59,266 bases of DNA, filler included, from Dugesia japonica (GCA_001938525.1; 6 parts of 6 records of this genome joined end to end with filler, not necessarily neighbours in it), one strand, 5' to 3'; positions 10,979 through 58,300 are shown, counted from the first letter of the whole stretch. The notes: generated by a model not told the origin, from the letters alone. Numbers and translations: made by a program.

Positions 10979-11023
10979 AGTAGATAGATAGTGGAGCATT
11001 GGAACATTTACGTAATCATCTAA
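10979..11023 (+). repeat. Maverick-like terminus at a contig end
   Basis: AGTAGATAGATAGTGGAGCA matches the terminal motif at 27664, 33328 and 42425. Confidence 0.5.
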
Positions 11024-29947: not shown

Positions 29948-30059
29948 NNNNNNNNNNNNNNNNNNNNNNNNNNNNNNNNNNNNNNNNNNNNTTAATTAAT
30001 TAANNNNNNNNNNNNNNNNNNNNNNNNNNNNNNNNNNNNNNNNNNNNTGATTTATTCAG

Positions 30060-31190
30060 ATATGGAATGTTACCAAGGTCGAGATGAAAGAAAGTAAAGT
30101 TCTGCTGTCAAAACTATAATGTATTAACAAAACACCTTCGGATCACCAGAAAACTTCATTCGTAGAAAATTTAGTTAAAAAGCAGCAAATGTCATTGATG
30201 AGAAATACCGAAATGAAAAACAGAGAGCACTATTGCTACTCATGCTACCCAAATACTTGCATAAATTAATCAAAGATATGGCAAAATCTGAATTTTATTT
30301 CTTTGGAAGTAAAGATGAACCAGACAAGTTAAAGTGTATATACTGATAAGGCAACTTGTATAAATATGAAATAAACGATAAACCAGAATGAGGGCATAGA
30401 AAATCTTTTTTTACTTGTTCATTTGTATTAAATATTGATGTAAAAAATATATCAATACTAGTTAATGGTAAAAATCCAGAGGTTGAAAATATTTGTAAAG
30501 CACCTATCAAACTTTATTGCAAAATAATAAAAAACCTAGCTGAAGTATTATTAACAGATAACATAGAATGAGACATAGAAGCTCAAATGAAAACCTTTAA
30601 AGATACACCTAAGCTGATAGAAAAAGCAATAGAACGATTAATTATTATCAAGCTGGAAAATATTAAATTTATTCAGTGTACAACATGTGAAAAGAAAGTA
30701 TAAATACTGAATGGTGTGAAAACATTAAACCAAAATGTATTCTATCAACCAAGGTGTTCAAGACTAAGCTATCAACATTACAGCAATTTACAAAAAACCG
30801 CTTGTAAAGTCAAATGGAGCATGTCACAAGAAAGAATAGAAATGACAATCGATCTCCAAACGATCAAATTGTCAGAAATGCTCAAATTAGGAAAGGAAGC
30901 TTCGAAGGAACTAATCACAAAAACAGCCTAAGAAAAAGGAACTGAAATACTAAAAATGTACGAAGCTTATCATCAATTGCTCCAAGATCTACTCAAAGAA
31001 GGCATCACAGAAGAAGAGTGGGTTCTAATGGATAGTACATCGTAGTATGTCTAGACCAGTTGACTCAAGTTATATTCATTCTATACGGACATTTAAAAAC
31101 TTGTTATAACTCCGCACTAAAACTATTTGAATGTCCTCTTTGTAGAGATCAAATTATACGAAGGGTATGTGGAATAAAAGTTAATCAATA
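30060..31190 (+). pseudogene. Inhibitor-of-apoptosis (BIR + C-terminal RING) pseudogene, apparently intronless
   Basis: ~30203-30430 reads KYRNEKQR...DMAKSEFYFFG...KCIY**GNLYKYEINDKPE*GHRKSFFTCSF, with exact BIR spacing C-x2-(C to stop)-x16-H-x6-C. ~31040-31170 reads VVCLDQLTQVIFILYGHLKTCYNSALKLFECPLCRDQIIRRV, an IAP-type RING. Confidence 0.85.
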
Positions 31191-33237: not shown

Positions 33238-33328
33238 TTCCGAGCCCACCCCATCCCCGGTTGGTGGGAGAGGTTGCGCGATAACTGCTTTTAAAAAAAA
33301 GTGGGTGATGCGCTAATATCTACCTACT
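33238..33328 (-). mobile_element. Maverick/Polinton-like terminus inserted into a Gypsy RT gene
   Basis: Minus strand reads AGTAGGTAGATATTAGCGCATCACCCACT...GCAACCTCTCCC (AGT start, GC-rich subterminus). Gypsy sequence resumes at 33329 (CGCGATTAATCTGTGTT vs CGCCATTAATCTGTGTT at ~18676). Confidence 0.6.
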
Positions 33329-33970: not shown

Positions 33971-33974
33971 ATTG

Positions 33975-34490: not shown

Positions 34491-34739
34491 TGACAGTATA
34501 GGGAAAGGAGGATACGAGGACAGACGGGGGTAATCGTAACCATTGGTAACGGTTCCGCGACCGTGATCGCGATGGAAATCGCGACCGTTTCCAAGTTGAC
34601 GGTATCGAAGCCGTGATCGGGACTGTTTCCACGGCAACCGTAGCGGTGACAGAAAAAATAATTTTGCTCAGTAACTAAGGGTGGTGCGTGGAAACATATT
34701 GCGTAATGTGTAACTAAGGTGTTATGGTTTATTTTATTT

Positions 34740-35345
34740 TCGATTTTTGAAAATTTTAAAATGTTAAAAAATTTAGAAAAATATTTGGAATTTAAGGATA
34801 TTTTTTTAAAATTTCTTTTTAGAAAATTGGTGACGATATTAGGTTCTAAATTTTCTATCCTCGTGTCCTCTCATTTTTTTGAGTGACTTGCGATATAGTT
34901 TTTTGAGACATTATTTTTGTAAAGTGAAAAAGATTTTTTTGTGAACTTGTTGACGAAGAATGGGACGGTTGCTATGGTAACATGGAAAGTTATGGTTTTA
35001 TGGGTTTTTCTCGGGAACAAAGAGTACTGGAATTTAGGTAATGGTTAAAGTAGATGAATGGTGTGTGGCCGGAGACAGATGATTAGTTTTAATTGGAAGA
35101 AAAAATTTTTTAATATTTTTGAAAAATCAAAAATATTTTTTAGAAATTTGAAAATTTTAAAATGTGAAAAAACTAAGAAAAACATGTGGAGATTTATGGT
35201 ATTTTTAAAATCTTTTTATGTTGAATGTTAATGACGATATACTGTTCTAAAGATTCTGTCCTCGTGTCCTCCATGTTTTTGAGCAACTTGCGAAATAGTT
35301 TTTGAAAAATTATTTTTGTATTGAAAACAAGATTTTTTGTGAGAA
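34740..35345. repeat. Direct repeat of ~200 bp (34740-34945 and 35147-35345)
   Basis: Shared TTTGAAAATTTTAAAATGT...TGACGATAT...TCCTCGTGTCCTC...ACTTGCGA.ATAGTTTTT. Confidence 0.8.
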
Positions 35346-35849
35346 GAAATGAATAGAAAAAACTTGAAAAAGTTAAATTTTATTTTTGAAAAATTTTATT
35401 TTTTGATAAATTTTAAATGTCCAATATCTAGGACAAATGATATAATTTTATGTCCAAAATTTAGGACAAATTATAAATTAAATTTAAAAAATAAAAAACC
35501 TTTATTTTTGAATTTAAATTTTATTGTTTTAATTTGATTTTTTCTAGGTTAATTATAATGTCCCTTTTCTAGTTAAATTATATAATATTTTCCAAGTTTT
35601 TTTACAGTTCTATACACACACACATTAACAAAATAATGTATTTTTTTATGTATTTAATAAATGACATATGTTTGTCTTAATGTTTTTATTATTATTATTA
35701 TTATTATTATTTACATTTAATTTTAATTACTATTAATAAAAAAAGACATAAAAACCAAATTAATAAAAAAGAAATAAAAACAAAATTAATACATATATTT
35801 GATCTATTTAATCATATTCACATAATATATAAATACATACATACATTTG

Positions 35850-38800
35850 CTCATTCGATCAATATAGAATGGTGACCATATGCCACACTGCTGTTTTTCC
35901 CAGTCCATTTCCTCTTGTCATCAAATGGATCTAGCGCTTTCTTTGATGATTTAATGGTGAAGAGCTGGTGATCACCGATCCAATTCTTGTTTGGTCCACT
36001 CTTTTTTCTTTTCCATTTTCATAGGCATCCACGAAATCTTGATGCTTTATCGATGTTTGTTTTAAGGATACACCTTTACTTTTCATCTTGGTTTTGGTAT
36101 TCGTTTGCATTTAATACGATTTCGGACGAAGACAAATCCATTCATTGAAATTTGATCGGCCTTCATTTTCATCTTTAAATTTACCGATGACCGCAGTTAA
36201 TGTTGATAAATAAAGCGGATCATCTTTTTTGAAATTGGAGGTGTCCAAAAACCGGTCTTCTATCATTGCTGGGAGTAACTGATTTCGCTGATCGACATTT
36301 TTACATTCGAGAAAGAAGCTATCTGTATNNNNNNNNNNNNNNNNNNNNNNNNNNNNNAACCTTTCTCTATAAGTCTGTAACTCCTCATATTGAAGCTTAT
36401 ACATCCTGACTTTCGATAGATCAAGGACAGCTTGACCAATATATGATGGCCTATCTAATGTCACTATATCTTTTACCATCAAAACTGCCACTAGTTCATC
36501 ATCAATTTCGACTGTATCCTGGAATTGTGGCTTGCTGGCATAAGTCAATAACTTCTTAGCATTGTTACAGAGCTTCAAATTAATTCTTCTTAATAAATTT
36601 TCGACAGTTTTTCCATATAAACTGTGGTTTTTCAATTTATAAAAGTCTTTCTCGAACGCGTTGAAACTTTTTGCTCTTTTTTCAGAATTAAATTCAATGT
36701 ACGATTTGAAAATACACACTTGACTGAATGATACTGCTCTTTGTATCTTCTCAACTTTTGCACCCAATTTCATAAATAACTCTGAGAGACGATAATGAAT
36801 GACATAATCTTTCTTCGTTTCATGGGCCAAAAGTAACTTTTTGACTCTACTTCCTGGTGGACATTTATTTATAGAAGTAAGTGGCAATTGGTCCAACTTG
36901 CCGTGTTCCTCAGGTGACATTTCTAAATTTACCTTGAAAAAAGTCCACGTTCATAATTTTCAATATCCAAATAAGGCAGGATTTCAATCAGAGTCTTCAA
37001 ATGTTCTTCGTCGACAATCCATTTGAAATTACCATATGGTAATGGCTGACTCAACGCCCAGCCGTACAGGTTGTTGATGTCAATATATAAGAGACTTGTA
37101 TTGTCATCTGCAATGACCCTATGTTTATTAACAAAGGTCATCCCTCCTCTTATACCTGACTGGAAAAAAAGGGCAACTCCGGGTCTTGTAACAATTCAAT
37201 TTTAAGTGTGCATGTTTTGATCGCCGTAGCCTAACATAAAGCTGGAATTGAAATAAAGTTGGCTGGTTCGAGTCCATCTAGTTCCTTGACTTGAGATCGA
37301 AATTGTTCAATAATATCAGCCAATAAGTATATGTCCAATTTCATATATATTAACATATACTGCAACAAATTAGCACATTTATATTGCTCCCAAACTTGTT
37401 TGGCATCATCATATTCTTCATCGGTGATATTATCCCATTTTGATGGTAAGCTGATGATTGATTTCAGTTCTTGAAATGGTTTAGCTAACGTGTATGGAAA
37501 CACACCTTTTCCTTTTATGATATTTGTGGTGAATGCTCTTTTTGTCTGCGGATAATCTTGCAAGTTTGATGCTAGTGTCTTCAACGATGCTGATAAAAAT
37601 TGAAATAAATCCAAAAATCTGATGGATATGGTTTTTCCTTTGTCCATTTTGATGTATGCAGTTAGTGTTGAAAACATTTCTTTCGTTTGCGGGATCACAC
37701 TTAAATTATAACTGGCAAACTTGCTGATTGCAAGCTTGAGGATATGGTGTAGATCATATCCTTTAAAATTGTGACAAAATACTGGCAACATGCATCTGAT
37801 TTGTCTGCTTATGTTGCATTTATTGCAAGAGGCTCCAAGATATTAACCGCTAATATGACAATTATCTTTTACAAATTTATTATAAATTGTCGTCTTTTTC
37901 TTCTTACATAAATAACATTCATTCGCATTCTCAAAATCATTTGTTGAGATGTTAGAGAAGACATTGGCACTTTTGCATTTTCATACCATGTTGTGACCTT
38001 GGTTTTTGCTATTGACTCTAATGCTGAAATGAAATTTATAATGCATTCTGGTCCAGTAAATTCTTGATAACTGATTGCTCCATTTGGCCCCAGAAGCAAC
38101 AAATCCGCCGATGCTGGCATATGAATACTTTTATGTATTTCTGATGGAATCAACACCGATTCAAAGTCGGCATAAACGATATAAGGTGGGCTGATTGTTT
38201 TGGAAAAATCAGAAAACTCACAATACTTGTTACCTGGCATTTTGTATAATGTTGTAAATTTGTCTTGAGAATTACACATGGTAAAGGTTTGTCGTAGCCA
38301 ATTTTATATCTGAACCCATGCAAGCATTTGTGGCACCAGAACTGACATTGAATTCGGAATCCACTTTCTTTATCTCTTAAATTGAGGAGGCTGTTCAAAT
38401 TTGTTATTGCCAAATAATGCTAGTTGTTGTTATTCTCTAAAAGAAGCAAGTTGATTTGTGTTCCATCTTGATTCTTGCTTCTATAAAACAAGTCAATATA
38501 CAGATTTTTGATAATATCCACTTCATCGGAAATATCCACTTCGTTATTGTATTTGAAGACATTGATGGCATACTGCGGATTATTTCTTTCGAACTTTGGT
38601 ATATTTTTTATTTTCATTGGCATATCTTCTTCTTTTGAAAAATAAATCTCTTATAAATACGGCTCATAGTTGCTCACTCTTTCCCTATGATGTTTGATTA
38701 TGGAATACTTTTAAACAGCTAAAATGCTGTAAATAAAACACAAATTGTCCTCATTCTGTACATTGATTGTTGCATTTGATTTGACCAATGTTTCTGGCGA

Positions 38801-39311
38801 TTTGATGAAGCTTCGACCAGAGAGATACAGAATTACACTAATATTGATTAATTTGAAGCAATAATGGAGGACTTTTACGATTTTCCATCCACTTCCCATT
38901 TCACTGTATTTTCTACCTTCTCTGCCAAAACTGGAGAAATGTTTTCGATGAAGTTTGGGTGAAATTCAACTAGTTTATGAGACACATACCATTCTTTTGT
39001 GTCACATTCTAGATTTTCGAATAGAATTTTGAGACCATGAACGATTTTTCAATTTTCGAGTTTTTCTGCTTGTTCACACACTTTTTCAATAAAGCTTGTC
39101 GGAAGCATAATTTCTCTGGTGTTGTTTCGACTGATATCAAAACACATTTCGATATGGTTGCCGTTCATAATTATTGTGATTTTCTGATAATGGCAGCTTG
39201 GTTTTGATGATTTCGCTACTACCGATCCTTTTCGTTACCGATTATTTTCAAGAACTGTTTGAACTGGATTGACTGATGGACCTGGATTGACTGATGGAAT
39301 TGGATTGATTG
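35850..39311 (-). pseudogene. Maverick/Polinton (adintovirus-like) protein-primed family B DNA polymerase, near full length, disrupted
   Basis: Exonuclease motifs VYADFES and HNFKGYD; KGVFPY; IRGG; LLYIDINNLYGWA; KLKNHSLYGKT; (D)TDSF; LRPKSY; KGV; FDDKR...AYGH. Endonuclease VII-like DNCHISG.YLGASCNKCN insert and N-terminal NEDNLCF motif. Several stops and frameshifts. Confidence 0.93.
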
Positions 39312-40750
39312 NNNNNNNNNNNNNNNNNNNNNNNNNNNNNNNNNNNNNNNNNNNNTTAATTAATTAANNNNNNNNNNNNNNNNNNNNNNNNNNNNNNNNN
39401 NNNNNNNNNNNATAATGCAGTTCATAATTACAATTTATAATCATCGAATAAGAAAATTACAAAAGTGAAATCTCTGTTGTAAATTATTATATTTTAACAG
39501 CTATTTATTATTATCTACCACAGTAGTTACCAGACGTTTGTGGTTTGCTACGCTTTTAGTATATCAATATTTTTTCACGGTACCCAAAATAAAAATATTG
39601 ATCTATTATTATGCAAGTTTTTAATTATAACTTTACCAGTTATTCATTCTTCTTTTATAGCAAGGNNNNNNNNNNNNNNNNNNNNNNNNNNNNNNNNNNC
39701 GGCTCTAAAAAAGTTTGTTGATTTGCTTGAATTTATGATTGTAAAATATAGTAAATGAATCGCTTTGGTTTTTTTGGTTATTTATTGTTTATAAAAGATA
39801 GTTTGATCCTAAAAGATTTTTTAATTTAGTAGTTTTTTACCGAACTTAACGAAAAATTATTTATAAAAGCTTATTGAAAATATTTGAGTGCTCTTTTATA
39901 TAGCTTTTATTAATATATCAATATTTTAGACATTCAAACAATATCACTTGTACTGTACAGCCGTTGTAAAAAAATCGATATATGGCTAACAATAGCTTAA
40001 AGGCTGTCTTTCATTGTGTTATGAGTTTGAAGTCCTCATCGGATAATTAATGTCAAAACTTATTTCCATAAGAGATTTATTCACAAAAAAAAACTATAAA
40101 CATAAACTTGCCTTTTTCAAAAATATTTAAAAATTGATACTTAAAAACGGAAAACATCAAATATCAGTATTTTGTAAAATATTTTAATTTAAAATTTGTT
40201 TAATGTCAAATTTTAAAATACAGTAAAAAACACATTTCAATGACAATATTTTATTCTATTTTTAATTTAAAATTTTATCTTATTTTATTTTATTCAAAAT
40301 TTTATTAATGTCAAATTTAAAAATACAGTAAAAAATATATTTTATTGACAAAAACAAAAATTTGAAAATTTTAACAAAATTACAAATATTTTAATACACA
40401 TTTATTAATTTTATAAATAACGAAAATGTTAATTTATTTATTTGATAAATTATTTTTATGATACAAATTTAAATATTTAACAAAACTGATTTCAATAAAT
40501 ACAAAAAATTCAAATCCGCTTGTAAAAACTATCTTACATATTGATTTTAACAACATACCTGGTTTTACTGGGAAATTCATAAGTGAACACAATTATTTTA
40601 TAAAAAATATATTTTACTAAAAATAAATTCACATTAACATTAACAATACATTGAATACATGCAAATATTATTTATTATCAAATATTATTTATAATCAAAT
40701 ATTATTCGACGAAAATAATTTCATTACATAAAAAAAAATTTACAAAGTTA

Positions 40751-43700
40751 TTATCGAAAATTTGTTAAATCACCAAACAATTTCGGTTTATTAAATCGAG
40801 AATTAACATTAAAATTTCTAACAACTTTAATATCTTCTTCTTCTTCTTCTGTTGTTGTTGTTGTTGTTGTTGTTGAAGACCACTTATTGTTGTCTCGTTT
40901 TGTGATTGGAGGAAAGAATGCACGCTTTTTACTTGAAATCGTTGAAGATGATGAAGGTGAAACTACACTGCTCTTAATGGAATCTTCAGACGAATTGGAT
41001 TTGTTGAAAATAAGCTTTGATGGTGAATTATAATTCGTTATGTTTCTATCGTATGTTGGTTTTGGTGTAGAATTATTTGATGAACTGTACGGATGAAATT
41101 CGGAATTTTCATACTTTCTTATTAGATTTGCAATATTTGATTTTATATTCGGACGAGAAAGTTTGGGATTTGTAAAAGTGTCAAAATAAAGTTGTTTCTC
41201 ATAGAAAGGATTAATATTTCTATTGTTTCTATTTTCAATATATATCTTATTCAAGCTGCTTGTTGAATGATTCTTTTGTAAACTACCTCGACTACTTGAT
41301 TTAATCAAATCAGTTGTTCCAATTAACGTGCAAATATTCGTTTGACTTGTTGATAAACTTGTTTGATGACTTGCTGGTTTCATACCTCTTGTAATGGAAA
41401 TTTTATGTGTTGAATTAGACAAACTACCTTGACCTTCTATAACAACCTCAGTTTGACTCGATGGAAACTTCCAATTTAATTCGGAATTATTGAAACTTGG
41501 TAAAGCTGCCAATTTTCGATAATCGAATTTATCGGAAGACATATTTTTCGTGACATTTTCTAAAAATTTGGATTTTCCATTATTAACATTTTTAATGAGA
41601 CAATCGAATGAATTTGATCTTTTTAATAAGAGTTTTTCTGATGATATTGTTGCGTATATGCTATTTTCTAATAATTTATAAAATATTTAATAAATTAATG
41701 AAAAAGAACAACAATACCATCTGTAGTATTTATTCCAATTTCTTTACCTTCTAGTTTCTCATTTCTGCGCATAAATTTACGTTAATTAATAATTATCATA
41801 AACAATCTATTTTTCATTACATCATGTATTCCAGTGGTCTCAAACTCAAATCATTTCTCAGACCGTTTTATATAAAATGTGGGCCACATTAATTCTGCAA
41901 CTGACTTTAACACTTTATACCACTGTATACAACGCTATTAGTATTATTAATTAAACGTATTATATTAAATTGAATTTGTTAGATATATCTTATAAAAGTA
42001 ATTTATTTTCGAACAAATTAATAATTTTAATCCATTTCTGTTTGCCGAAATTCTACATTGTGGGTCGCATTTAAGCTCTTTGTGGGACGCGTATTTGAGA
42101 CCCCTGGTGTACTGTATGGTATTATATTATATTACATTGTCAAAGTAAACTGTCTTAAAAATTGATTAAGACCGCAGTATTATTGATTACAAATGATGAT
42201 TTAGAAGGTTGCTTTAGATCAGACCTGGCGAACCCATGGTCAAGGACGAATCCACAGGAGAGCGATGGGGGATATCGCCGCCCATAACCGGATTTCGAAA
42301 AAGATATATAATGATAAGGAGCGACTATCCACGTAAATATTAGGATAGTAGTATGATAACGTAAAGAAAAATAATTAAAAACAATTTTGTATCAAAAAGT
42401 CGAAATAAATAAGATAAAATATTTGTTGATAGATAGTGGCGCACTAAATAACATCCCCGAATTACAAAGTGGTTTAGAAATTCGGTTTGAGATTATGGTT
42501 TAGTAATTTAGAATCTACATATATACTGTAAAAATATTAAATACTAAAATGATAAATTAAATAAATTTTATAATAAAAATTAACCTTATACTTGTTTGTT
42601 TTTTATTGTTATTTTCATTTATTTCCTCGGGAATACGTTTGAGCGATTTCTACCCCTGTTTTTTTTACTCAGCATAAAATTCTCTATTAAATAGATGGGT
42701 TGATGATAAAATTTGAAATACTTTTTATTTTTCGAAAAATCTATGTAAGATATTGAAAAAACCAAAAATGACCCCCGTCAAATTCTTAACAGATTGGTAT
42801 AAAAGTATTTGAAATCAGAGCAAAAAAATTATTTTTGAAAAACTTAGACTGTTCACCCGTATTCCCATGAAAATTTGATATATTGTGAAAGTTACGTTTT
42901 TGGTAATTATTCGCTTTTTTAAAATTTTTAACTATTGATCTCTGAATGATAAAATTAAATATTTTCAAAATTAAGAAAATAAAATAAGGCTTAGATCAAA
43001 AAATGTTTTTTAAAATTTTTTATCAAGTTTACACATTTCAAAAATTTAACTTACTTCCCCAAATGTTCGAGTTTATCTTCGTCGAGAGTTGTGATTGATC
43101 TATTCGATTTATTTAATCACAACTCTTGAAGAAATAAAATCGAAAAATTGGGTCGAAGAAAATTAAATTTTTGAAATTTTTTTTCATATTAAAATTTATA
43201 AAAACATTTTTTGGCGTAAGTCTTAGTTAAATTTCTTCATTTTGAAAACATTTAATTTTATTTTTTTTCTAATTAAATATTTAAACATAACGGACTTATC
43301 TACTGGATTTCCGTGAAAATTAATTAAAAATTAATTTTAGTAAATGTAAACAAAAAATCACTAATTTCCCTTTATTTAAACTAAAAATTTAATTCCCGGT
43401 CAATTGTATAATAAACTACATAATTATTTTAATATAGCCCCCTTATGAAAAATTCCTGGATTTGTCGCTGCCCACGACTCATTGCAAAATAGTTTGTGGC
43501 TCACAAAACAATTTATAAATATCTATAAAACAGAATATTACTAAAATAAAAAATGGATATCTTAATTACAAAGTTTCTTTTTTAGACCCTTTTGCGGCTC
43601 ATTAAATTTTAGAGTTTTTGTTTTCGCTCATTATTTAGTTTCACAGAGATTCCCCAGAAACTAAAGAATGAAAGTTCCAAATTAAATTGCTCTAAAGTTA

Positions 43701-46700
43701 TTAAGTGCTTTGCAACTCACTGGAATGTTGCCAGATCCGTTATAGATATACCACCGACGAATATTTGTGCCAACGAAGGGTGAATGTGAGGAAATGTATG
43801 TTTCTTAAATGTTTTAAGGGTTTTTATTTTTTATGAATGTGTAATTGATGGAAGCTTTATTTGTTTATTGAGAAATTTTAGAAACTCTTGTTTAAATAAT
43901 ATTTGTGGCGGATTTTTAAATACGGAGTAAAATTGTAAGTATTCTTTAGGAACTTTATTCATTTTTGGTCGAAATCAATACGTAAGATAAAATATTTGTA
44001 ACATTTTAATATAATATTTTGTAATATTATTTAAATTTTGTAGATAGTATTTTTATTCATTTATTTATTGTTGAACAATTGTTTTTAGAAATAAATATTA
44101 TTAACAGAAGAAAGTGTTTTTAATGTAGGGTATGTAGGCCCAACCTCTAATAATGAAATTAATGGAAGAATTGAACCAAAAAAGATAAATATTTGAATTT
44201 GAAGTTTATTTCAACTAATGTATTTCGACTGTGCTAAATACGCTTATGTATAGAATTTTCATTGTCAGTGGTGCGGAATATTTTTTATGAATTGAACGAA
44301 ATAAATGTTAATTTCTGATTCTATAAAAAAATTTCACTGATTGATACTATAGACTAAAAATGTTTTTGCTATAACCCTAATTTTATTGTATCTGCCTCAA
44401 TGACTTTATTCAATTCATCATTATCCACAACTTGATGGTGTTGACCATATTTATCATCTTTCAGATCTTCATCTTCCTGTTGGAATCGTTGAAACTATCT
44501 ACCACATTGACTTTGATTGATAACAATATCTCCAGGACATTGCATATGGTTCGGTATGATTTCGCGGTTTGTTTTTTCAAGAAACCAACTTATTCTTTCA
44601 TCAACTATATGTTTATTGTTATTATTTATGTTATTGTTTTATCTGTTTGAAAGTCAGTGTATTTATATTTGGAAAATATTTATTAATTAAAAAAAATAAA
44701 TATCAACTAAAAAATAATAAATATCAATTTTAAAAAAATTAATTTAAATTAAAAACTCTATATAATGAAATGTATAATGTAATCAAATCAGAATGAAAAC
44801 AGTAAAAAAATAGCTTTAAAATTAACAATAATTATAATATTAGGTTAAGCAAAAATGAAAAAAAAATTTTAACAAAGATTTATATTTAATCTATAATTTC
44901 CTTTATTTTCCATGTTTCTAGTAAATGAGCTATACAAATAATAAAATGTCTTTGTGTTTAGAGTCAAAGAAAGCCTTAAAAGGTGATGAAACATCGCTGG
45001 AATCAATGAATGATCTCTAGTCCAAATAATTTCGCAATGACCGAAGTAGCAATGTCAGGAAAATATACAGGATGACTAAAGGCTTTCAAATCTACTTTGT
45101 GTATTTCTATTGTGTTTGATTGTCTTCTGTGGCTTAAAATTGTTATGATGAGGAAGAACACCGTTTCTGTTTTCAAAAATCGAATAGTTATTATGTAATT
45201 CGGTGCTAAAGAAACCATCGATAGCATTACATATCTACTGAAATGGTTTTGCCAGGTGGCTACTATTCGTTAAATTCAAAATCTCGCAATTCTCCATAAA
45301 TCTTTATTTATTATTACAAGGTTTTTGATTAAAGTGACAAAAAGATGAAGAACAATTCATAGTATTCAAACAAATGATCTGAGAAATTTTAATAAAATAT
45401 TTTAAAAATATCGATTTTAATTCAACAAAATATTTATATTTTTAATCATTTTTTTTTTACATAATTTCTTTAAAATAATTTATAATTTTATAATTTTGCG
45501 TAATATAATTTATAAATATATAATGTATCATTTTGGCTTCTGAACTCTTCAGCAGATATCGTCTTTCATGAATGAGTTTTATCACCTCGTATGGACCTGT
45601 GTATCTTTCTTTGTCTTTTGATCGGTTTTCTGCCTTGATTAGCACCTCGTCTCCAACTTGGAAATTTTTCTTTGTTGGTGTCAACTCTTCAAATTATTCA
45701 TTCTTTTCTCCATTATTGAACCTTCTTTCTCTATGTATCTTCTTATCGAATATCACTTCTGCTGGACTTATCCCCAAAGTCTTCTGACTTGTTGCATTTA
45801 GTGTATATTCAATTTCTGGTATTAACTCGGTCCAATTTTTATTTTTTTTATCTTTTAATGTTGCATTGATGTTATCTTTGATCGTTCTGAATTGACGTTC
45901 TACTATTCCGTTTGTATTATGATGATATGCACTTGAAAAGCAAATCATTATATTCATTGAATTTGTCATCTCTTTAAAGGCTTTCGATTCGAAGATCTTT
46001 CCACAATCAACATGTATCGCTTTTGGAGTACTTAATGTCAGTATCCATTTATTGATAATCGTTTTCTTTATTGATTCCTCATCTTGTTTAACGAGGGCTG
46101 TTAAGCATATGTATCTGCTAAATTTATCTATACATTGGGCATCGAAAATGCCTGTCTTTCTGTGATTGCATTCAGTTTTCTAAAATCTGGACATAATCGA
46201 ACGTCTTTCCTTTCTTTTTTCAAAACATACATTAATGGAGTGTTCCATTGCAAATTACACTTTCTAATAATGCCACTGTCAAACAAATTCTTGATAGCTT
46301 CATCGATCTTATTCTCCATGGTTAAATATTTCTTGATTCTCCATTTGTGATTATTTGAGGTTCTGCCATTGTTGTTCTGCCAATAACCCAGTTGTCTGCC
46401 ATGAATATTCCTTTATAAATCATTGTAACTTTCTCTAAATTCTCATTTGGTTTGTTAATCAATATTTTAATTGACTTTTCTCAATCTTTCCCGAATTCTC
46501 AAATTCATCCCATCAACTCTTTCTTCATTGTCTAACAAGCAATCAACTTTTACGCGTTGTATTTCAACCGTTATACTTGGACTACCTTGCATCTTGTCAT
46601 AACTTATCTCTAGTCGCTTTTCTCTTCTATCATCAGAATTTCACTTATCTTCTCCTTTATATCATTGATCATCTGTGGTTAGCCTCTAATCAATNNNNNN

Positions 46701-47300: not shown

Positions 47301-48559
47301 CTAGACCAATTATAAAATTTATATTAATTGATTAATTATTTTCATTTTATTTTATATTATTTTTATATCAGATTTTTATTTCCAGACTACTTTTATTTTA
47401 CCACTGCTATATTCAAACTTGTGGCGATAAAAATTGTTCTAATAAAAAATATATAAATCGAAAACATAAGTTAAGCCGCTGGTTGAACATCACCATTATA
47501 TTATTCGTAAATTATAGTAATAAGTAATAAATATTTCATTAAATATTCTTACATAATCAAACCAAATTAATTTGATTGAACCTTACATATAATTTTATAT
47601 TTTAAAAAGAATATTAATTCAAAATTTTATTAATTTTTAGAAAATTAGGCATAAATATCAAGATTAACAATAATATTCCCATTCCCACTTTTTATGAAAC
47701 ACAGATATTACATTAAAAAATCTTGTTAAGCCTCATCGTTTTATTTAAATAAATATCCAATGAAAATTAAATTAACCAAATGAACTTATAAATCTTTATT
47801 TGTATTTTAAATGATATATTATTATTTTAAAAGTATTCTATTTAATACTTTTAATGTATTGTTAATATTATTATTAGTATGTATATATATATATATATGG
47901 GGTACCATGGAAATAGTTCTAGAATTCCGTGCCATTTTTATTATTTTTAGCCCTACGTACCAGTATATTTGGCATGCGTAGGGTTTAACATTAATAAAGA
48001 CCAAGCATTTTCACATAAGATAAAAATGGTAGAAAAATTAGTTGCGAAACTCAAACTAAAAATATAAAACAATTAAGATATTTTCTGCGGGGAAAACGAA
48101 AGATTTCTTAAATGAAAAAATATGAAAACATATTATTAGTTTTTGCCTTTATTTGTGTATATATATATATATATATATTGTCTAAAATTTTTTATTTATT
48201 TTTTTANNNNNNNNNNNNNNNNNNNNNNNNNNNNNNNNNNNNNNNNNNNNTTAATTAATTAANNNNNNNNNNNNNNNNNNNNNNNNNNNNNNNNNNNNNN
48301 NNNNNNATTGAAGATGAAGATGTCAGTACAAACGATGGATATGAGGAACCATATGAAAGTGATTCCGAAAGGCAGGGCTCCACCAGTAGAGGAGTTGGTT
48401 GAAGCCATCCATTGAAAAAAATTACGAGCTCAAACCAAGCATGAGCCTCAAAAGTTCGAATTTTTGGACCCCTAATTTCACGCAGTTTACATATACACAC
48501 ACATTTTATTTTACACAACTTCTTTTAACATGCCATGTTTTTATTTTAGTTCATTATAA

Positions 48560-49540
48560 TTACTGTACAGGAGAACATGCCGTGTGTNNNNNNGTTAGCG
48601 GAACTGAAATCTTATGGAAGTACTAATTCGAAGTACTTATGGAAGACAACCGCCAGGTCGTGAATCAATTTATAGATAGAAAGCTCAGTGTCTGGAAAAT
48701 GAAAGTGTAGATAAAGAAAAAAAACTACTGGAAGAAAGAAAATTTCTAAGGAAAAGTTTGATCTTTTTCGTCAATGTTTTTCCAGTAATCCCAAACAATC
48801 AGTACAATATGCAAGCAGAAATTGCATATACAGTGCACAAAGTTATTCCTATAATCATCATCATTAACTGTACAAATTTCGACTTTTTCATAAGTTACAT
48901 GTTTAATGACAAGATTACTCGAGCTAATTTTGCTGTGAATATGCTGAAACGATTAGATAACGATCCGCATTTCATTGAAAAAATCATGTTTGCTGATGAG
49001 GCAACCTTTCATTTGTCAGGAACAGTAAACATAGATAATTGCAGAACATTGGGTTCTGAGAACCTGTCTGTTATTTCAGAGAATGGAAGAGATACTCCAA
49101 AACTAAATAAGTGGTATGGCCTTTTTCATAATGAAATTAATGTTCATTTCTTCTTTGCGGAGAAAACTGTAACATCTGCCAGTTACCATCCTATGATCCA
49201 ACAAAATGTCGTCAAAATTCTCCAAGGAAATAACACTTTCATTCTAAAAAAAAATGGTGCGACGAACAACATGAGTCTTTTGGTTCGTATTTTCCTGGAT
49301 ATGAAGGCGCGGCCCCGTTGCTTTACCACTACGATATATGGATATAATGCGACTGGATTTTTTTCTCAGGGGTTATGTAAAAGATCGAGTGTATTCAAGC
49401 AAGATAAAAACATTTGAAGACTAGGATTACAGATACCATTGCAGCAGTCACCCCGGAAATTCTACAAAATACCTAGGTGAGATTGAATAGAGGCTTGGCA
49501 TGGTATGCACAAAAATTGGTTACAATGTTGAAAATTATTG
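48560..49540 (+). mobile_element. Tc1/mariner-superfamily transposase relic (DD41D/rosa-like)
   Basis: IMFADEATFHLSGTVN..NCR..GSEN...RDTPK...FFFAEKTVT and a downstream LDFF..G remnant; frameshifted. Confidence 0.8.
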
Positions 49541-49760: not shown

Positions 49761-50155
49761 CAGTGTTTCCCAACCTAGGCGATCAAAAATGAATGCAGAG
49801 TTAGTGGGCGATGGTGAGCNATGAAAGGTTAGTTTTTATAACTTGTATGTCTCATGAAAGTAGGCCATTTGAGCATTAATATATCATTAGCATAAAACTT
49901 TTCTTTTTGCACAAACATTCGGCCAAAATGGCAAACTTTGATTTTTTTGTTCACAGACTTCATTAAAAAAGATGTCTCATCATATCTTTGCTTTTTCTGA
50001 TCCTTATTTATCCGTGTGTTAATTCAACAGTAACATTACAATTCAATGCAGTTCTAAATGGGTAGTAGAAATTGACTAATCTTTATCGATGGGTGATGGA
50101 GTCAGTGTAATATGCCGAAGTGTGCGATGCCGAAAAAAAGAGTTGGGAAACACTG
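49761..50155. mobile_element. hAT MITE
   Basis: Perfect 14-bp TIR CAGTGTTTCCCAAC; TSD not preserved. Confidence 0.8.
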
Positions 50156-50225: not shown

Positions 50226-53200
50226 AACTCTGGTATTTTCAATGATGGCAACAAAAATGTTGTTAACATATGAGATAATTTAGAAACATGTTTCTTTTCA
50301 CCATCCAAAATATGATTAACAATCTATAAATGAATTATATATTAAGATCTAAATTCAATTATATTTACATCTGCTTGAAAAGTTAACAAATGACTGTCAC
50401 TTGATGTTTTAACATCTGATTGAGGTGATCCATCTTTTTCCTCATCTACAATTTATAGATTATTTCCTCATTTTCATGCATTTAATTCTAATTAATAGAA
50501 TATCAAATGAAATTAATCGAGATCAATTTGTATGTTCAAACAAAAACTACCATAATATAATTTATATTTTTCACAAATTCATTAAGTCGAATTACAATGG
50601 AGTACCTTATTGAAAATTTTTCCAATTACCAAAATTAATGGAAACAACAAAAAATTGCATAATTTTTTTAATAAAATGTGAATTTGTTAAGTTTTCTTTA
50701 AATTTAATTTTATGTTAAAATTTTCTTTAAATATAAAATACAGTATAAACATAAAAACCAAATTAAATACCGATTATTTTGTATTTGTGAAATATTGGAA
50801 AAGATTTTGTTAAATATTATGATTCGTTTGATTTCTACCTAAAATGAATACTTTAATTAAGCAGATAAAAAATGGGAGCTCCAATTTAGAATTTTATTAT
50901 TTTCATTTTTGGTAAAAATATGTATCATCGTGGTATTTTTAGATAATACATTAATCATATTGGGTTGTCCGGAAAGTTCGTGACGAGTTATAACAAAAAT
51001 TCCAAAGTAACACATTTAAATTTCAAAATGCATTTATTAAATTAAACATTTGCCATTTTGATTCGCAGCCTTTCTCCATCTTTCATGCAACTTAAAGATT
51101 TCATTTTCCCCGAATATATCAGGTTTTCTGGCGAAAAAAATATCAAGATGATTTTCTATATCAATCGAAGAGGTAAATTTTCGACATTAAGGGAATCTTG
51201 ACAAGATATATATATATATATATATATAAGTGGAAATATGTAAGTGGAACCCGCATAAAGTGAATAAGGCGGATGGAGTAGAACTTTCCAACCGAGCTCC
51301 AAACCCTTTTCTAGTAGCCAAAGACGCACAAGGGCGTTTATTGTCCTGAAAAACCAGAACTCGGCTCTATTGCCAAGAGCTCGAAGTTTTCTTTCAATTT
51401 ATTTGTTTAATTCGTCTAATTACAAATAATACGTTTCGGAATTTATCGTCTGATTAGTTGGTATAAGCTCATAAAATAAAATTATTTGCCAGTCCTATCA
51501 AACACCAATCATAACTATTTACGAATGAAGACCGGCTTTTGCGGTGGTTAATGATCTTTTCCGCTGAGCATTATTATAAATGATCCATTTATCATCTCCT
51601 GTCTCTACTTGCTTCAAAAATGATGTCACTTTGTTTCGTTTATAGAGCGACTGTTAGATGTTGATGTCATCCATCAAGTTCGTGTTGAATCCATATATCT
51701 AAACGGTTTATATATCCAAGCTTCAATTTTAACTAAAATGGTGGTTTTCAGTATATTTAACCTTTCTACTGATTCTTATTCTCGATAAGTGTTTTGCTTT
51801 GATCTTCATCAGTGGTGCTGGGTCGTCTCAGAAGTTCCTTGTCGTCAAGGTTAAACTCATCAGCTTTAAACCTAGCAAACCCCTTCCGAACAATTCTCAG
51901 ATAAAGCACATTTACCATAAACAGCTCATAATTTTTTTGCTGCTTGTGTAAAAAAAACCATCAAATTCTTATAATGAATTTTATTTTCTTCAATATTTAA
52001 ATTGGTGTAATAAATTGTGATGATTATTTTACCAAATCATTATATCTTTATTAATTCACATGTCATTTGCCTTTTAGATAATGTATATATGTAATTTGTT
52101 TTCATTCATTCCTTTATATTAAAACCTGTTTAATTCAACACACTGACAATCAGCACGAACTTTCCGAACAACCCAATATTAATTCATTAATTACTTATAA
52201 TTATACTAGCAGTTTATATAACATCGCATTTATAGTTGAAAACGTAGCATGTGTAGAGCCATTAACTTTTAGAATTTAATTGAAAATAGTTTTCAATAAA
52301 ATATTACCTATATTTTTAAAGAACTATTTATAAAATATTTATTTAATAAACACCAAGTGGTTTGAGAAATCTCCTTAAAATAAGAAAATAGATCATAAAA
52401 AAATTTCAATGAAAATCGATTTTCTGATTGTGAAATTTTGTTATTGGGTTGCAACATAATTTTAAATGATTTTATTTTTTATTGCAATTTGTAGTTTATT
52501 TATCCACAACATTTTTATTTTTGAAAAAAACATCATTAGAAATCCTTTTTGGGCTCTACAAAATCTCAGTAATTTTATGTCAGTAAATTTTATTCAAATC
52601 CTAAAGCTTTTAGAAATGTAATGCCAAGTAGATAAGAAAACAATATTTTAGATATCTACTTTTATTTGCTTTTAATGAGGTCTAAAAGTTTCAGAAGTGG
52701 TCCGAGATATTTGTGCTGTGTACGGAGAAAGTGCAATGGCCGGGAGTACTACAAACGATTGCTTCACAAAGCTGCGAAATGGCACATTCAACCTTCAAGA
52801 TAATGGCCACTCCGATCGACCACCCAAGTTCGATGAGTTTGGAAAACTCATCTGATCATTAATATCAGAACTCGAATTCATTACAAAATTTATTCAAACA
52901 AAAACTATGCTTAACACTATTTGTTTATTCAAACAACTTAAAATCTCGTATTTTCATTGGTGATCATTTATTTAAAATTTTAAATCGAAATTTTATTTAT
53001 TTAAAATTAATTTACATTAATTTATTTAAAACATTTTATTTATTTATTTAAAATTTAGGACAAAATTTTCGTTCACGTTAAAAATTTTATTTATTAAAAA
53101 TTTTACTTTATAAATTCAATCGTTATTTTTGAAATTTAAAATTGAAACTTTTATTTATTTAATTAGCCAAATTTCCGTTTACTCAAAAAATTTAATTTAT

Positions 53201-56200
53201 CATTAATTTATCATTATCATTTAAAATTTTCATCAATAATTTAAATCTCTCTTAAACAAAATATTTTAAAAATATGATCACCAATCACACAAAAATCTCA
53301 ACTTGCTTTTCAAAACACACTGACAATTATTGTAAAAAGAATTGTTCTAAATAAATGTTTTAAATTATCATGTTTTAAAAAAATCATATAAAATTATGTT
53401 GCAACAAATAAAATCGATTTTTAACTGGGAGTGAATGCACTCCAAGGAGAGCGAGAAAGCATTATTTGAAATTATCAATGAAAATTATAGACAGTAAGAG
53501 AAAGAAAATATTAACTTAGAACAACTGGCAAAAGCAGCATTTCAAGCGCTTTTACAATTAGCAACTACTTACTTCTGTGAAATCGGTTTTTTATCACTGT
53601 TTAAAGAAATAACTTGAAATGAATTTAACTTTTTAATAAAGATATTATGCAACGAAAACTTATTTTGAAGTCAAAAGAGATGTCCGCCTACTAAAAAGAT
53701 AAAGAACCACTGTTATAAATTAGTAAAAATAATCGCATAAAATTTATTAAACGTAAGGAGGCTTCACATCACTTTAGACCAGGGATGTCCAACCTGCGGC
53801 CCGCGGGCCGCATTGCGGCACACTCAATGTTTGAATGCGACCCACTATCGACTCATTAAATTTTTTTATTTTTTTAGCAAATTTATCAAGTAGTGAGCAC
53901 AAGAGTCTTCATGTAATTTAATCAAAATACTNNNNNNNNNNNNNNNNNNNNNNNNNNNNNNNNNNNNNNNNNNNNNNNNNNNNNNNNNNNNNNNNNNNNN
54001 NNNNNNNNNNNNNNNNNNNNNNNNNNNNNNNNNNATTTTTAAATTTTCTTTGTTGTTGAAATAAATACATTTTCAGTAAACTACGGCTCAGTATACCTAT
54101 TAATGGTTAATTTCTTTTTCAGTTTTGCGGCACAGTTAAATATTTAAGTTTGCAATGCAGCCCATTAAATTAAAAGGTTGGACATCCCTGCTTTAGACTT
54201 AAATTTATAATATAAAAGATTAATTTCCTGGTAAATAACAGAAACCCAGATGTCTATAAGGATTAGATATTCATAAAATTGAAGTTTATAATCAATTCAT
54301 TTAATATAAAAGCTTTGATCAAAATTTTGGTTTTTTTATTGATATTAGATAATAATTCGATATTTCGACCTTGTCTTCGTGGGGAATTGACTTTTAAAAA
54401 ATTGACTTTTATAAAAAGTCAATTCCTGACGAAGACAAGGTCGAAATATCGAATTGTTATCCAATATCAATAAAAAAACCAATATTTNNNNNNNNNNNNN
54501 NNNNNNNNNNNNNNNNNNNNNNNNNNNNNNNNNNNNNTATATTAAATGAATTCTATAAAACGATCAATGGTTATGTCCAACAATTATTCTCGCAATAATT
54601 GCAATTGTTTATATAGAATATCAAGAAAAGAAAAATATGATATGAAATTTTTAAATATAACAATAACTTAAAAAAATTCTATTTTTAGTAAAGAAAACAT
54701 CATCATGTGATTTAATAAATATTTTCAAGTAAAGATAGAATTTTTACTACGTAGTGTAACTAACTAGATTTTGGAATAATTACTAACCTAAAATAAGATA
54801 CAAATGAATGTTAAAATGGAATTTTGTTTACAAATACCGATACACGAAAGGTTATTTAAAATTTATAAATTAAAATCAAAGATTATATTACAAAACCTTT
54901 TGCGTAATCACTGTATGAGTTGTATATTACTTCTGAAATCGTAAAAATACCAAAAATATTGTGCTGAATAAAAAAAACAACAAGAAATCGAATACAGAGA
55001 AATAATTTCACCTTGGAGATAATAAAAGTAGCATTATTAAAATATTCCTAACAAGTACACTATGATAGGTTGAAACTGTCACAGAACTTATTGATCAACC
55101 TATTATGTGATTATTAGGGCAATTTTTAGACCTAAAAAAGTACGATTTTAGAACTTAAATTAAACCTAAAAAATATATTGAACTGTATTTACATTTAAGT
55201 TTAGCGTTCAAAAATAGATTTATTACCGAATATAAATATGGCCTAAAATACATTGTATTATTGTTATTAGAACAATCAATTACGACATTAAAACATTAAA
55301 ACAACAGTNATATAATGAATTTTATTGACTTATTTAGANCTAAAAACATTTTTTTAGACTATTTAGACCAGGGATCAGCAACGTGNACCCNCCGAAATTT
55401 TTATTTCAGAAATATGTCCGACTACTAAAAAAGGCTGCCGACCCATGCTCTAATGACAGTGAAACCCACTTCTACTGAAATCGTTAATTTTTCTTATCGA
55501 AACGTATAAATCGAAGTATTTCTCTGAACTAATCTCTACACATTGTTCAGAAGCTCCTCTAGCGTACAAAATTGCTATAAAGGCCCCATAATTACGATTT
55601 TGTTACTGTCCAGTCTTTTTTCAAAACTTTACGAGCTTCAGTGCACGANNNNNNNNNNNNNNNNNNNNNNNNNNNNNNNNNNNNNNNNNNNNNNNNNNAT
55701 AATGAATTTTATTGACTTATTTAGAGCTAAAAACATTTTTTTAGACTATTTAGACCAGGGATCAGCAACGTGCACCCACCGAAATTTTTATTTCAGAAAT
55801 ATGTCCGACTACTAAAAAAGGCTGCCAACCCATGCTCTAATGACAGTGAAACCCACTTCTACTGAATTCGTTAATTTTTCTTATCGAAACGTATAAATCG
55901 AAGTATTTCTCTGAACTAATCTCTACACATTGTTCGGGAGAAAAAAGGATGTCATCCCCTCAGAACCTCCTCTAGCGTACAAAATTGCTATAAAAGCCCC
56001 ATAATTACGATTTTGTTACTGTCCAGTTTTTTTTCAAAACTTTACGAGCTTCAGTGCACGATTTGATATATTCCATTATAGTTTCGTCGATTATCAGATT
56101 AAAAGCACTCTTTACAGTACCAAGTATAATATTTCATTTGGCATAGGAAGTTGGCCCCGATACGTCTTTGAATTTGGTATTACCGATAAATTTACGAGTA

Positions 56201-58300
56201 TTTCTACCATCTTTCACTGTTTTCCATAATGTCCCATCAGCAACGTTTTGTGTTGAAATTTCTTCATTATCAGATCCATCTGCAGTGTCTAATTCACTTT
56301 CCGTTTCAAAATCTGGAATATATCGTACTCGGTTTATGCCAGGAGTTATATAACGATCACTATCACAATCACTTGATTCACTTTCTGATAGAAAACAAGC
56401 TCTTCTTTTTCTCGGAGTTAGTAAATTGAGAAGTTTGAACATGAAAACTCTCGCATCAGAGTGTTTACAAAATTTTTTATGCTCAAGAAATAAGTTACAT
56501 ATGTAAAATGGCAAACTTTAAAAGTATTCAATGAGTCAAATCGACTCGCTCCGTCAATCCAGTGTCAAAGTGATCTACTGTTTCCGATTGACATCAGTAT
56601 TGACATTTGTTTGCACCTATTTGCGATGAAACTTGCAAAAATAAATTGTAGAATTTATTGATCATCATGAAAAGCCTCAGAATGTTGCGACCATCAGTTT
56701 CAAGAATAGTAATTCGACAGAAAAAATCTTGGAACATCTGAAAAGAAAGTTTGTCCAGGACGCCCACGCAATATTCATACAAAGCAATTCAAACTGAGTG
56801 CATCGAAATCTACAACTGAAGTGTCGTAAAATGACTGAAGAGCTTCGAAAAACTCGAATGACGATTCATCGAGTGCTGAAAAATGATCTTCGATTGAAGG
56901 TCAAACAAGCAACAAATTCGACAAGAGATTATCGATGAGAATAAGATAAATGCAAGCAGGCACGAGAAAGGTAGATTCTCTTCTAAGACGAGAAAATCTT
57001 CTCCATTTCTCAAAAGTTGAATAAGCAAAATGATAGAGTCTATGCCATTGCCATAAAGGTTTGTTGGGAAACAACAATCGGCGAATCAATCATGGTTTGG
57101 CTAGGAATTTGTGGGGATGAGAAAACTCACGCTATTTTGATACCTCAAGAAGCAAAACTCAATGCTTAATTAGTAAATAGATCCACACTGGGCCACCTCT
57201 CCACCCACCCTGCCATTGACCAATGAGATTGAGTTGAGCCGATTACTGTGTTATTAAGTATTAAACTGCATAAATTAATAGGCTACTTTGTATGTGATTT
57301 CGAATTTTGAAAATTATGTGTTACGTAATCGACTAAACTCAATCTCATTGGTCGCCGGCAGGGGAGGGCGAGAGGTTGCTTAGTGCGGACGTATCTACTT
57401 AAATCCTATCTGAGCTTCAATTTGGAGAAAGGAGTGAAGCTTTTTGTGTTTTAATTGCCATGATTTGCTTCGATTGTTCAAGTTTTAAACAATCTTACGC
57501 CGGCGTTCGTTCGTTCAAGCTGCAAATTTAATATTTTACTCTCATTATTGCAGACCATTATCGAATTTTTAGACTACTAATTTATTTCTGGCGGTTGATA
57601 TACTTAGCTAGTGAATATATTTACTGAATCAGATTCCATAATCGATTTTTAAACATAATGAATTAGATTATTTCGTTTATTTAAAATAGAAAACAAATAT
57701 TTCTTTATTAAAATATAAACAAAGTTTCATAATCTCCTAATTAAGAATTATTAAATCAATATCAGTAAGAAATTCAAAATTGAATAATATTTAAATTTTA
57801 TAAATTATTTTTTTCGTGAATATTTTGTCATTCTTATTTCTCATTGGATAATTTCATCATTTCAAACTATATTATTCTAGTTAATAACAATTAATTATTA
57901 TAATGAAAAGTATCAATTAGAAAAAAACAAATTTATTGGTATCTATTTTTGCAATCAAATTAGAATTTTACATTATTACAAGTTTGTTAAAAATTATAAA
58001 CTAACCTATATCAGTAACATAATTACTCGGAAACCATCCTGTGACTTGATCTAAAGTCCCTTCCCACCAGCCACCATCAATTTGTTGAGTAAGCGTAATA
58101 ACATCATTTTTATTGAAAGATAGCTAAATTACATTGGTCAAAAAATACTGTGTAAAAATGTAGAAACGTCATTTTATACAAAATATTAATTGACTTCATG
58201 AAAACGCTAAGATCTAAAATCCTGAACATCTTACTTCATCATTATGTCTTCGAATATAGTCAAATAAGGCAGTCACTTTTTTAATTTTATTATTTGCCAT
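50226..58300 (-). CDS. ARHGEF7: PIX/Cool-like Rho GEF, N-terminal exons: 58235-58300, 58006-58123 (SH3), 50369-50445, 50226-50323 (start of DH domain)
   Basis: GT-AG splicing with consistent phases gives [71 protein letters not shown]...[32 protein letters not shown]. The SH3 matches beta-PIX (DELSF.KGDVI...GGWWEGTL...GWFPSNYV) and is followed by a DH helix-1-like segment. Later exons not found before the linker. Confidence 0.78.
50960..52176 (-). mobile_element. Full-length decayed mariner element
   Basis: TIRs TTGGGTTGTCCGGAAAGTTCGTG / CACGAACTTTCCGAACAACCCAA with TA on both sides; ~1.2 kb; [11 protein letters not shown] and [10 protein letters not shown] motifs. Confidence 0.92.
52444..53408 (+). 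mobile_element. Internally deleted mariner element
   Basis: TIRs TTGGGTTGCAACATAATTTTA / TAAAATTATGTTGCAACAAA; HTH remnant RDICAVYGE...GTFNLQD...RPPKFDE. Confidence 0.8.
53430..53712 (+). mobile_element. hAT (Buster-like) 3' fragment
   Basis: [25 protein letters not shown]; ends in AGAACCACTG. Confidence 0.6.
53780..54190. mobile_element. Young hAT MITE
   Basis: Perfect TIR CAGGGATGTCCAACCT and perfect 8-bp TSD CTTTAGAC. Confidence 0.95.
54280..54608. mobile_element. Head-to-head inverted Penelope-like pseudo-LTRs
   Basis: ~54290-54400 is the reverse complement of ~54410-54555 (partly in a gap); each arm begins with a hammerhead motif. Confidence 0.75.
54420..54456 (+). ncRNA. Minimal type I hammerhead ribozyme (Penelope type)
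   Basis: CAATTC-CTGACGA-A-GAC-AAG-GTC-GAAA-TA-TC-GAATTG: intact core, 3-bp stem II, palindromic minimal stem III, perfect 6-bp stem I. Predicted cut after C54450. Confidence 0.75.
55756..55834. mobile_element. ~80-bp hAT-type MITE (duplicate at ~55368-55447)
   Basis: Ends CAGGGATCAGCAAC / GCTGCC(A/G)ACCCATG. Confidence 0.55.
55870..56564 (-). mobile_element. piggyBac 5' half relic
   Basis: Terminus TTGA|CACTGGATTGAC (decayed TTAA); acidic N-terminus; GPTSYAK...SAFNLIIDE...FIAILYARG...[15 protein letters not shown]. Confidence 0.8.
56590..57420 (+). mobile_element. Tc1/mariner (DD37D/maT-like) transposase relic interrupted by a MITE
   Basis: ILF.DEK.F...NKQNDRVY...[12 protein letters not shown]...KLNA|KSYL. 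Confidence 0.7.
57172..57399. mobile_element. 228-bp MITE with AGT termini, ~75-bp TIRs and inferred 6-bp TSD (candidate Maverick-derived)
   Basis: Left AGTAAATAGATCCACACTGGGCCACCTCTCC...GACCAATGAGATTGAGTT; right reverse complement AGTAGATACGTCCGCACTAAGCAACCTCTCG...GACCAATGAGATTGAGTT; flanks TTAATT / TAAATC. Confidence 0.75.

Follow-up and report, generated by a model that had tools for sequence, protein, structure and literature searches.

A decayed Tc1/mariner transposase gene of Dugesia japonica is interrupted by a 228-bp inverted-repeat element, and the gene has gained six bases beyond these 228. As the ends of this element start with AGT, the signature to be considered is that of the Mavericks (Polintons), and we tentatively read the insertion as a non-autonomous element that was moved by a Maverick-type integrase, a reading to which we give slightly less than an even chance. 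The Maverick idea is a fair lead, which rests on one worn copy and on AGT ends of uncertain identity.

The window, by which we mean the whole stretch of DNA that was analysed, consists of 59,266 nt of D. japonica DNA (GCA_001938525.1) in which 6 parts of 6 records are joined with filler. It is gapped, transposon-laden eukaryotic DNA of 27.7% GC. Scaffold gaps of 100 bases with a central TTAATTAATTAA spacer lie at 11024-11123, 20245-20344, 29948-30047, 39312-39411 and 48207-48306, there are gaps with duplicated flanks (55312-55648/55699-56061 and 18080-18331/18382-18595), and a near-perfect palindrome at 54322-54487 adjoins a gap. The tracts 17231-20292, 33329-34000, 45460-46243, 195-4001 and 48680-49417 contain three related fragments of Gypsy pol, remains of hAT transposases and another mariner-like frame. 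On the minus strand, a cyclin N-domain frame (PF00134; 12338-12661) and a frame of 311 codons, rich in Ser and Asn and without a Pfam match (40754-41686), probably belong to host genes. The features discussed below are collected in Table 1; papers are cited by their PMC numbers, from excerpts of their text.

Table 1. Coordinates of the 228-bp element, its host gene and related features of the window
Feature	Coordinates	Strand	Remarks
Tc1/mariner (DDE_3) transposase, decayed; portion preceding the insertion	56798..57166	+	
Putative left copy of 6-bp duplication, TTAATT	57166..57171	+	
Non-coding inverted-repeat element, 228 bp	57172..57399	.	Boundaries of the 6-bp duplication reading
Alternative element boundaries	57171-57400; 57170-57401		4-bp reading (230 bp); 2-bp reading
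Left inverted arm	57172..57246	+	75 bp, 51% GC, starts AGTA
Spacer, AT-rich	57247..57324	.	78 bp, 24% GC
Right inverted arm	57325..57399	-	75 bp, 53% GC, starts AGTAG
Putative right copy of 6-bp duplication, TAAATC	57400..57405	+	In host reading frame
Host transposase resumption, ~17 codons	57401..57451	+	Homology then lost, 3' part missing
AGT terminus of larger element	33259..33328	-	Homology to another Gypsy RT copy begins exactly at 33329
Second terminus like the 33328 end	27627..27664	-	31/37 identical, unpaired
AGTAGATAGATAG terminus, candidate junction	10979..11023	+	Runs into assembly gap
Decayed terminus, candidate junction	42424..42447	+	TAGATA-N4-CGCA and CGCACTAA
Decayed IAP gene (BIR and RING), then 41-bp tandem repeats	30098..31188	+	Inside the 33328 element
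Decayed Polinton-type protein-primed PolB	35863..39168	-	Several frames; PF03175; outside the 33328 element, linked to no terminus
Second PolB remnant	15391..16768	-	Internally deleted (~430 codons missing); no terminus found nearby
hAT-like MITEs (CAG...CTG)	21257-21877; 41832-42106; 49761-50155; 53780-54190		

The coordinates and the length of 228 bp given in the initial annotation were reproduced, and the long terminal inverted repeats (TIRs) starting with AGT that it described proved to be two 75-bp arms with AGTA at either end. The arms are complementary at 59 of 75 positions and have thus diverged by 21%, which marks the element as an old insertion. The first four bases of both ends are fully complementary and the next base outward is mismatched; the end hexamers are AGTAGA and AGTAAA, and shifting the boundaries gives TAGT or TTAG. 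In the right arm both a TAGATA-N4-CGCA motif and the 10-mer GCAACCTCTC are found. Neither an ORF of at least 55 codons nor an Rfam match was detected in the 228 bp, and fold-back of the strand is much stronger than in its shuffled versions (z -9.3, 0/200). Structurally the element is therefore a MITE, being short, non-coding, bounded by inverted repeats and able to fold back. The folding energy played no part in the choice of family, because every long TIR gives such an energy.

The reading frame of the host gene, followed from 56561, contains 7 stops in 202 codons, and among 29 candidates two DDE_3 proteins were the sole matches for the frame that flanks the insertion. The right flank was scored against the homologue residues that follow a K-I-N-T motif, at 45 restart positions. 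With the homologue P0001 the best restart corresponded to a net insertion of 234 bases (228+6) with a score of 20, the runner-up scoring 4, and the score of 20 was reached by 15 of 112,732 background 15-mers. The homologue P0002 gave the same offset, but its score was just 4. Since the homologue register puts the net insertion at 234 bases, the six extra bases are real, as is the insertion itself. This register independently backs an earlier observation, namely that removal of the element plus 6 bp restores the frame K-L-N-A-K-S-Y-L. The TIRs of the host Tc1/mariner element itself were searched for and not found.

The target-site duplication (TSD) can be read in several ways. The two hexamers that flank the element agree at 4 of 6 positions, which happens by chance in 7% of cases, while a true duplication worn as much as the arms would keep four or fewer matches in 38%. 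Likelihood ratios for the junction bases were 3.2 for a 6-bp duplication, 1.35 for 4 bp, 4.3 for 2 bp and 0.24 for none. Under the 6-bp reading the host junction is free of a stop. The 4-bp reading (TAAT/AAAT, 3/4) leaves the host frame without a stop as well and gives the ends TAGT/AAGT, with a mismatch at the terminal base. With the 2-bp (AA/AA) and 0-bp readings a stop codon falls at the junction with the host, which makes both less favoured, and a 3-bp reading (AAT/AAT) is perfect at an offset of one base. Of the 6-bp duplication that had been claimed for this element, the 4/6 match therefore stands, whereas the duplication itself is unconfirmed, as the 4-bp and 2-bp readings fit about equally well.

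PiggyBac and Kolobok elements duplicate TTAA, and hAT elements duplicate 8 bp. All three of Tc1/mariner, piggyBac/Kolobok and hAT were rejected as families of the element, given that symmetric boundaries yield neither TA/TA nor TTAA/TTAA and that 8-bp readings match at 3-4 of 8 positions; the Tc1/mariner duplication is TA in the excerpt of PMC10045372. At the four hAT-like MITEs of the window, with boundaries set mechanically, the flanks match at 8, 5, 3 and 2 of 8 positions, so worn TSDs are usual in this DNA. The MITE at 53780-54190 has a perfect 16-bp TIR and an 8-bp TSD. Fossil Maverick copies, too, often have imperfect TSDs in the vertebrate survey excerpted here (PMC8097293).

Apart from the element, four ends in the window share a core of about 20 bases (Table 1). 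That at 33328 is a true junction, validated independently of its likeness to the element. When both arms were scored, it ranked fifth among 1545 AGT sites, with a score that was reached by 1 of 1500 shuffles, and the shared 10-mer arose in 91 of 20000 shuffles of the 33328 end. The motif TAGATA-N4-CGCA occurs 4 times in the window against 0.04 expected, although it was picked after the sites had been seen. In the scoring with both arms, candidate sites 6055 and 24521 scored equal to it or above. With the right arm scored alone, 33328 fell outside the top 15 of the 1545 sites, and there are ten other exact matches of at least 10 bases to the arms elsewhere in the window. A profile built from the four other ends gave rank 15 to the right arm and rank 115 to the left arm among 114,268 positions. 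The inner 30 bases of the 75-bp arm, which are its most conserved part, match none of the other ends. Matches of this kind can arise by chance, as indicated by an 8-base inverted pair, AGTAGATA...TATCTACT, which lies at 52627-52660 inside a broken Mos1-like HTH mariner frame and serves as a negative control. The likeness of the element to the 33328 end is thus suggestive, being above chance but patchy, and their relation is not firm. The motifs that the initial annotation saw shared with the ends at 33328 and about 42425 are indeed present, but neither end is confirmed as that of a Maverick.

Among 17 pairs tested as partners for the AGT ends no convincing element was found, and the best pair (5/6) was rejected because one of its sites lies within a mariner reading frame. 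Window-wide, 30 AG-ended pairs have flanks matching at 5-6 of 6 positions, all of them AT-rich and chance-looking. The stretch 42424-43304 was rejected as a sister element on account of its asymmetric ends and flanks matching at 2/6. On the minus strand, 43291-43304 matches the right end of the element at 13 of 14 bases and ranks first of the 1545 AGT sites by likeness to the arms; it lies 43 bases past an AT-rich 313-bp palindrome (42949-43261) and is without partner or TSD. Within 27306-27926, two 230-bp copies that are 96.5% identical enclose a terminal piece of 130 bp whose end is at 27664; this may be a case of two haplotypes assembled in tandem.

The larger element that ends at 33328 (30048-33328) is represented by its right-hand end, which is inserted into a Gypsy RT and runs left to a gap. 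Besides a decayed intronless IAP gene (Pfam BIR E 1.5e-7, RING E 1.6e-7) it contains 41-bp tandem repeats, a stretch rich in C and A, and at its terminus a GC-rich box. The best HMMER homologue of the IAP gene is a stand-alone 483-aa protein of 36% identity, not a polyprotein, and a word search for the IAP carrier gave no match. IAP homologues are known from adintoviruses and Polintons (PMC8502044, excerpt), and planarian Burro elements, which are giant Gypsy elements, carry BIR domains and tandem repeats (PMC6431247, excerpt), so that the 33328 element may be either a Maverick or Burro-like. The window also holds two decayed Polinton-type PolB genes, the one at 35863..39168 with a weak endonuclease VII match (E 0.033), and from these it follows that Polinton-type elements have lived in this genome. 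A link between this PolB and the 33328 end was rejected, as the end faces left and the PolB lies to its right, past a Gypsy fragment. No PolB or integrase linked to any AGT end was found in the window, and Maverick integrase, ATPase, protease and capsid gave no Pfam match in the 18, 10 and 131 frames scanned, the 131 being drawn from 194 frames of at least 55 codons of which the rest had already been scanned or overlapped known genes. The sole rve match lies within a Gypsy pol (45697-46179). Next to the PolB 3' end, the region 34000-35350 shows a sharp switch of strand composition, from A/C-rich 31-bp repeats through a GC-rich box (34490-34650) to G/T-rich repeats, with no AGT end found.

No second copy of the 228-bp element exists in the 59-kb window. 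Searches of prokaryotic collections, which carry little weight here, gave 0 matches each for the arm pattern and the terminus pattern in 185,579 genomes, none for the element in phage or plasmid records and none for the window PolB in phage records. The terminal strings of the element had one unrelated match in literature text and none in the excerpted supplements of PMC8502044, PMC8532177 and PMC8097293. As for precedents, the literature searched for mini, MITE-sized or non-autonomous Polintons, a collection separate from Repbase, Dfam, the founding papers and preprint supplements, gave a single paper, which concerns Tlr1, and no MITE-sized Maverick derivative; the excerpts of PMC3014272, a C. 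elegans eri-6/7 preprint, PMC12220804 and PMC8532177 mention no such derivative.

Mavericks combine AG/AGT ends with a 6-bp TSD in the excerpts of PMC8097293 and PMC10045372, in agreement with what the initial annotation had stated of them. The element resembles them in its AG/AGT ends, its inverted repeats, a possible 6-bp TSD and the PolB remnants in the same window (compare PMC8097293 and PMC8502044, excerpts). It differs in that Mavericks are multi-kb elements with PolB and integrase, whereas the element has 228 bp and no genes; in that Polinton TIRs measure about 100-1000 bp (PMC4196379, excerpt) and its arms only 75 bp; and in lacking the end motif (AGT)2 or (AG)3, which PMC8097293 excerpts give for vertebrates, the group whose end motifs were compared. 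Non-autonomous relatives of Polintons, as far as the excerpts go, are Tlr1 (sometimes so called), the ~7-kb transpovirons (PMC5499653), Polinton-N1A_NV with a capsid gene still present (PMC11296320), and polB-less cargo polintons (Pannagram preprint). These are helper-dependent and have inverted ends, like the element proposed here, but they are gene-bearing and kilobases long, none of those described in the excerpts being MITE-sized. The element may therefore work like a non-autonomous Polinton, yet we do not class it as a member because it has no PolB or integrase, arms of less than 100 bp, no (AGT)2/(AG)3 and an ambiguous TSD. IS3EU/GingerRoot and Ginger1/2 use integrase-like enzymes too, the former with 6-bp TSDs (PMC10045372, excerpt). 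Their ends are TA..TA or TG..CA (PMC2836005 and PMC10045372, excerpts), while those of the element would be AG..CT at a 6-bp TSD, and membership in IS3EU/GingerRoot was rejected on this ground. Likewise, the BIR cargo and tandem repeats of Burro (PMC6431247, excerpt) recur in the element ending at 33328, but Burro has direct LTRs and the 228-bp element has inverted arms and no long direct terminal repeats, so that it is not itself an LTR retrotransposon.

The inverted-repeat element is old, retains nothing but its 75-bp ends with a spacer between them, and has entered the Tc1/mariner transposase gene. Under the Maverick reading its ends would be AGT...ACT, and the six bases would be its target duplication, with two substitutions since. 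It would be related to the large elements with AGT ends in this genome, and those would be Mavericks/Polintons, whose retroviral-like integrase would act in trans and join the element to its target with a 6-base stagger. More speculatively, a folded-back single strand might be copied by the protein-primed PolB of the helper, like a defective mini-genome, a copying step drawn from the published Polinton model (PMC4196379, excerpt). In favour of this reading are the net insertion of 234 bases, the full complementarity of the first four bases of the ends, the fit of AGT ends and a putative 6-bp duplication to the Maverick signature, the likelihood ratio for 6 bp without a stop at the host junction, the likeness above chance to a real AGT junction at 33328, including the 10-mer and the excess of TAGATA-N4-CGCA, the two PolB remnants, the IAP homologues of adintoviruses, and the imperfect TSDs that are usual both in fossil Mavericks and in the hAT-like MITEs of the window. 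Against it speak the single copy, the 4/6 TSD with its 4-bp and 2-bp rivals, the missing end motif and short arms, the weakness of the likeness when the right arm is used alone, when the profile is used and beside ten comparable matches, the want of any AGT end that is paired or tied to a PolB or integrase, the lack of Pfam matches to the other Maverick proteins, and the fact that Burro LTR elements, too, have tandem repeats and BIR domains. Mobilisation in trans by a Maverick, as it was originally proposed, thus draws on the AGT ends, the PolB remnants and the 33328 likeness, but it is held back by an ambiguous TSD, a patchy likeness and an IAP gene with no linked PolB or integrase.

An ordinary cut-and-paste MITE with a 4-bp duplication, spanning 57171-57400 (230 bp, TAGT.../...ACT(T), TAAT/AAAT) and belonging to Sola1 or AcademX, is an unlikely alternative. 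In its favour, MITEs of such families greatly outnumber Maverick minis. AcademX ends are TAG, and the 4-bp reading starts with TAG on the left only. Sola1, AcademX and hAT MITEs resemble the element in size, in being non-coding, in their long inverted arms, AT-rich spacer and fold-back; they are classified by TSD and ends, with which the element either disagrees or, under the 4-bp reading, agrees at the cost of a terminal mismatch. That reading has a 3/4 TSD and a host junction without a stop, its AAAT fits the AWWT target that is the hallmark of Sola1, whose published MITEs measure 248-709 bp (PMC3845634, excerpt), and AcademX produces 3-4-bp TSDs (PMC10045372, excerpt). Yet the mismatch falls on the very terminal base, the likelihood ratio is 1.35 against 3.2, the above-chance resemblance to the 33328 terminus is left unexplained, and the one Sola1 TIR in the excerpt starts with GGACC (PMC3845634), unlike the element. 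No such transposase was matched in the window, for which Pfam may have no models. With a probability that we set rather low, the element may instead be a MITE of an unclassified DNA-transposon family whose duplication measures 2, 3 or 6 bp, and its resemblance to 33328 may be fortuitous or due to a short binding motif in common. Before the stop codon is considered, the likelihood ratio is highest for the 2-bp reading, the 3-bp reading is perfect, the likeness to other ends is patchy with candidate sites 6055 and 24521 doing as well as 33328 or better, and the AGTAGATA pair in a mariner frame shows what chance can produce. On the other side, the 2-bp reading implies a stop codon at the host junction, an AA duplication fits no family known to us, and the 33328 junction was validated without use of the likeness.

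Some Gypsy LTRs, those of insect errantiviruses, start with AGT. This bears on a further, improbable alternative, according to which the AGT ends and the 6-bp duplication are correct and the large AGT elements are giant Gypsy elements of the Burro kind or other integrase-type elements, so that a Gypsy-type or Ginger-like integrase was borrowed. The 33328 element has BIR and RING domains and tandem repeats, of which the BIR domains and the repeats recur in Burro, and LTR elements make 3-6-bp TSDs (PMC10045372, excerpt). Nevertheless, the best IAP homologue stands alone rather than in a polyprotein, and the ~20-base core across four ends seems more like a TIR than like the tip of an LTR. Furthermore, we know of no route by which an LTR system would mobilise a 228-bp inverted-repeat element. 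That there is no mobile element at all, and that the structure arose by fold-back duplication in place or by misassembly, is hardly credible: duplicated flanks do accompany many gaps of the assembly, and one gap has a near-perfect palindrome beside it, but the element is GC-rich, unrelated to its flanks and splits the transposase cleanly in register, the nearest gap is more than 1.4 kb away and the arms have diverged by 21%.

As a MITE within a dead transposase gene the element is ordinary. More would follow if it were a MITE-sized Maverick satellite, amplified as a family and consisting of 228 bp of cis signals only (the AGT end, the TAGATA-N4-CGCA box and a GC-rich box), a proposal that is possible but towards which we remain on the doubtful side. 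On this satellite reading, the cis signals would be those required for integration, and perhaps for protein-primed copying, by a helper Maverick. It would indicate how little end sequence is enough for a Maverick integrase, and perhaps for the polymerase, in an element far smaller than the gene-bearing non-autonomous relatives described in the sources excerpted here. Surveys of Mavericks that are based on coding sequence would overlook a class of tiny derivatives; the vertebrate survey of PMC8097293 could not detect minis, because it required coding matches 4-40 kb apart, as its excerpt states. If the satellite reading is true, virus-like self-synthesising elements give rise to defective parasites of minimal size, and a minimal Maverick end would thereby be defined.
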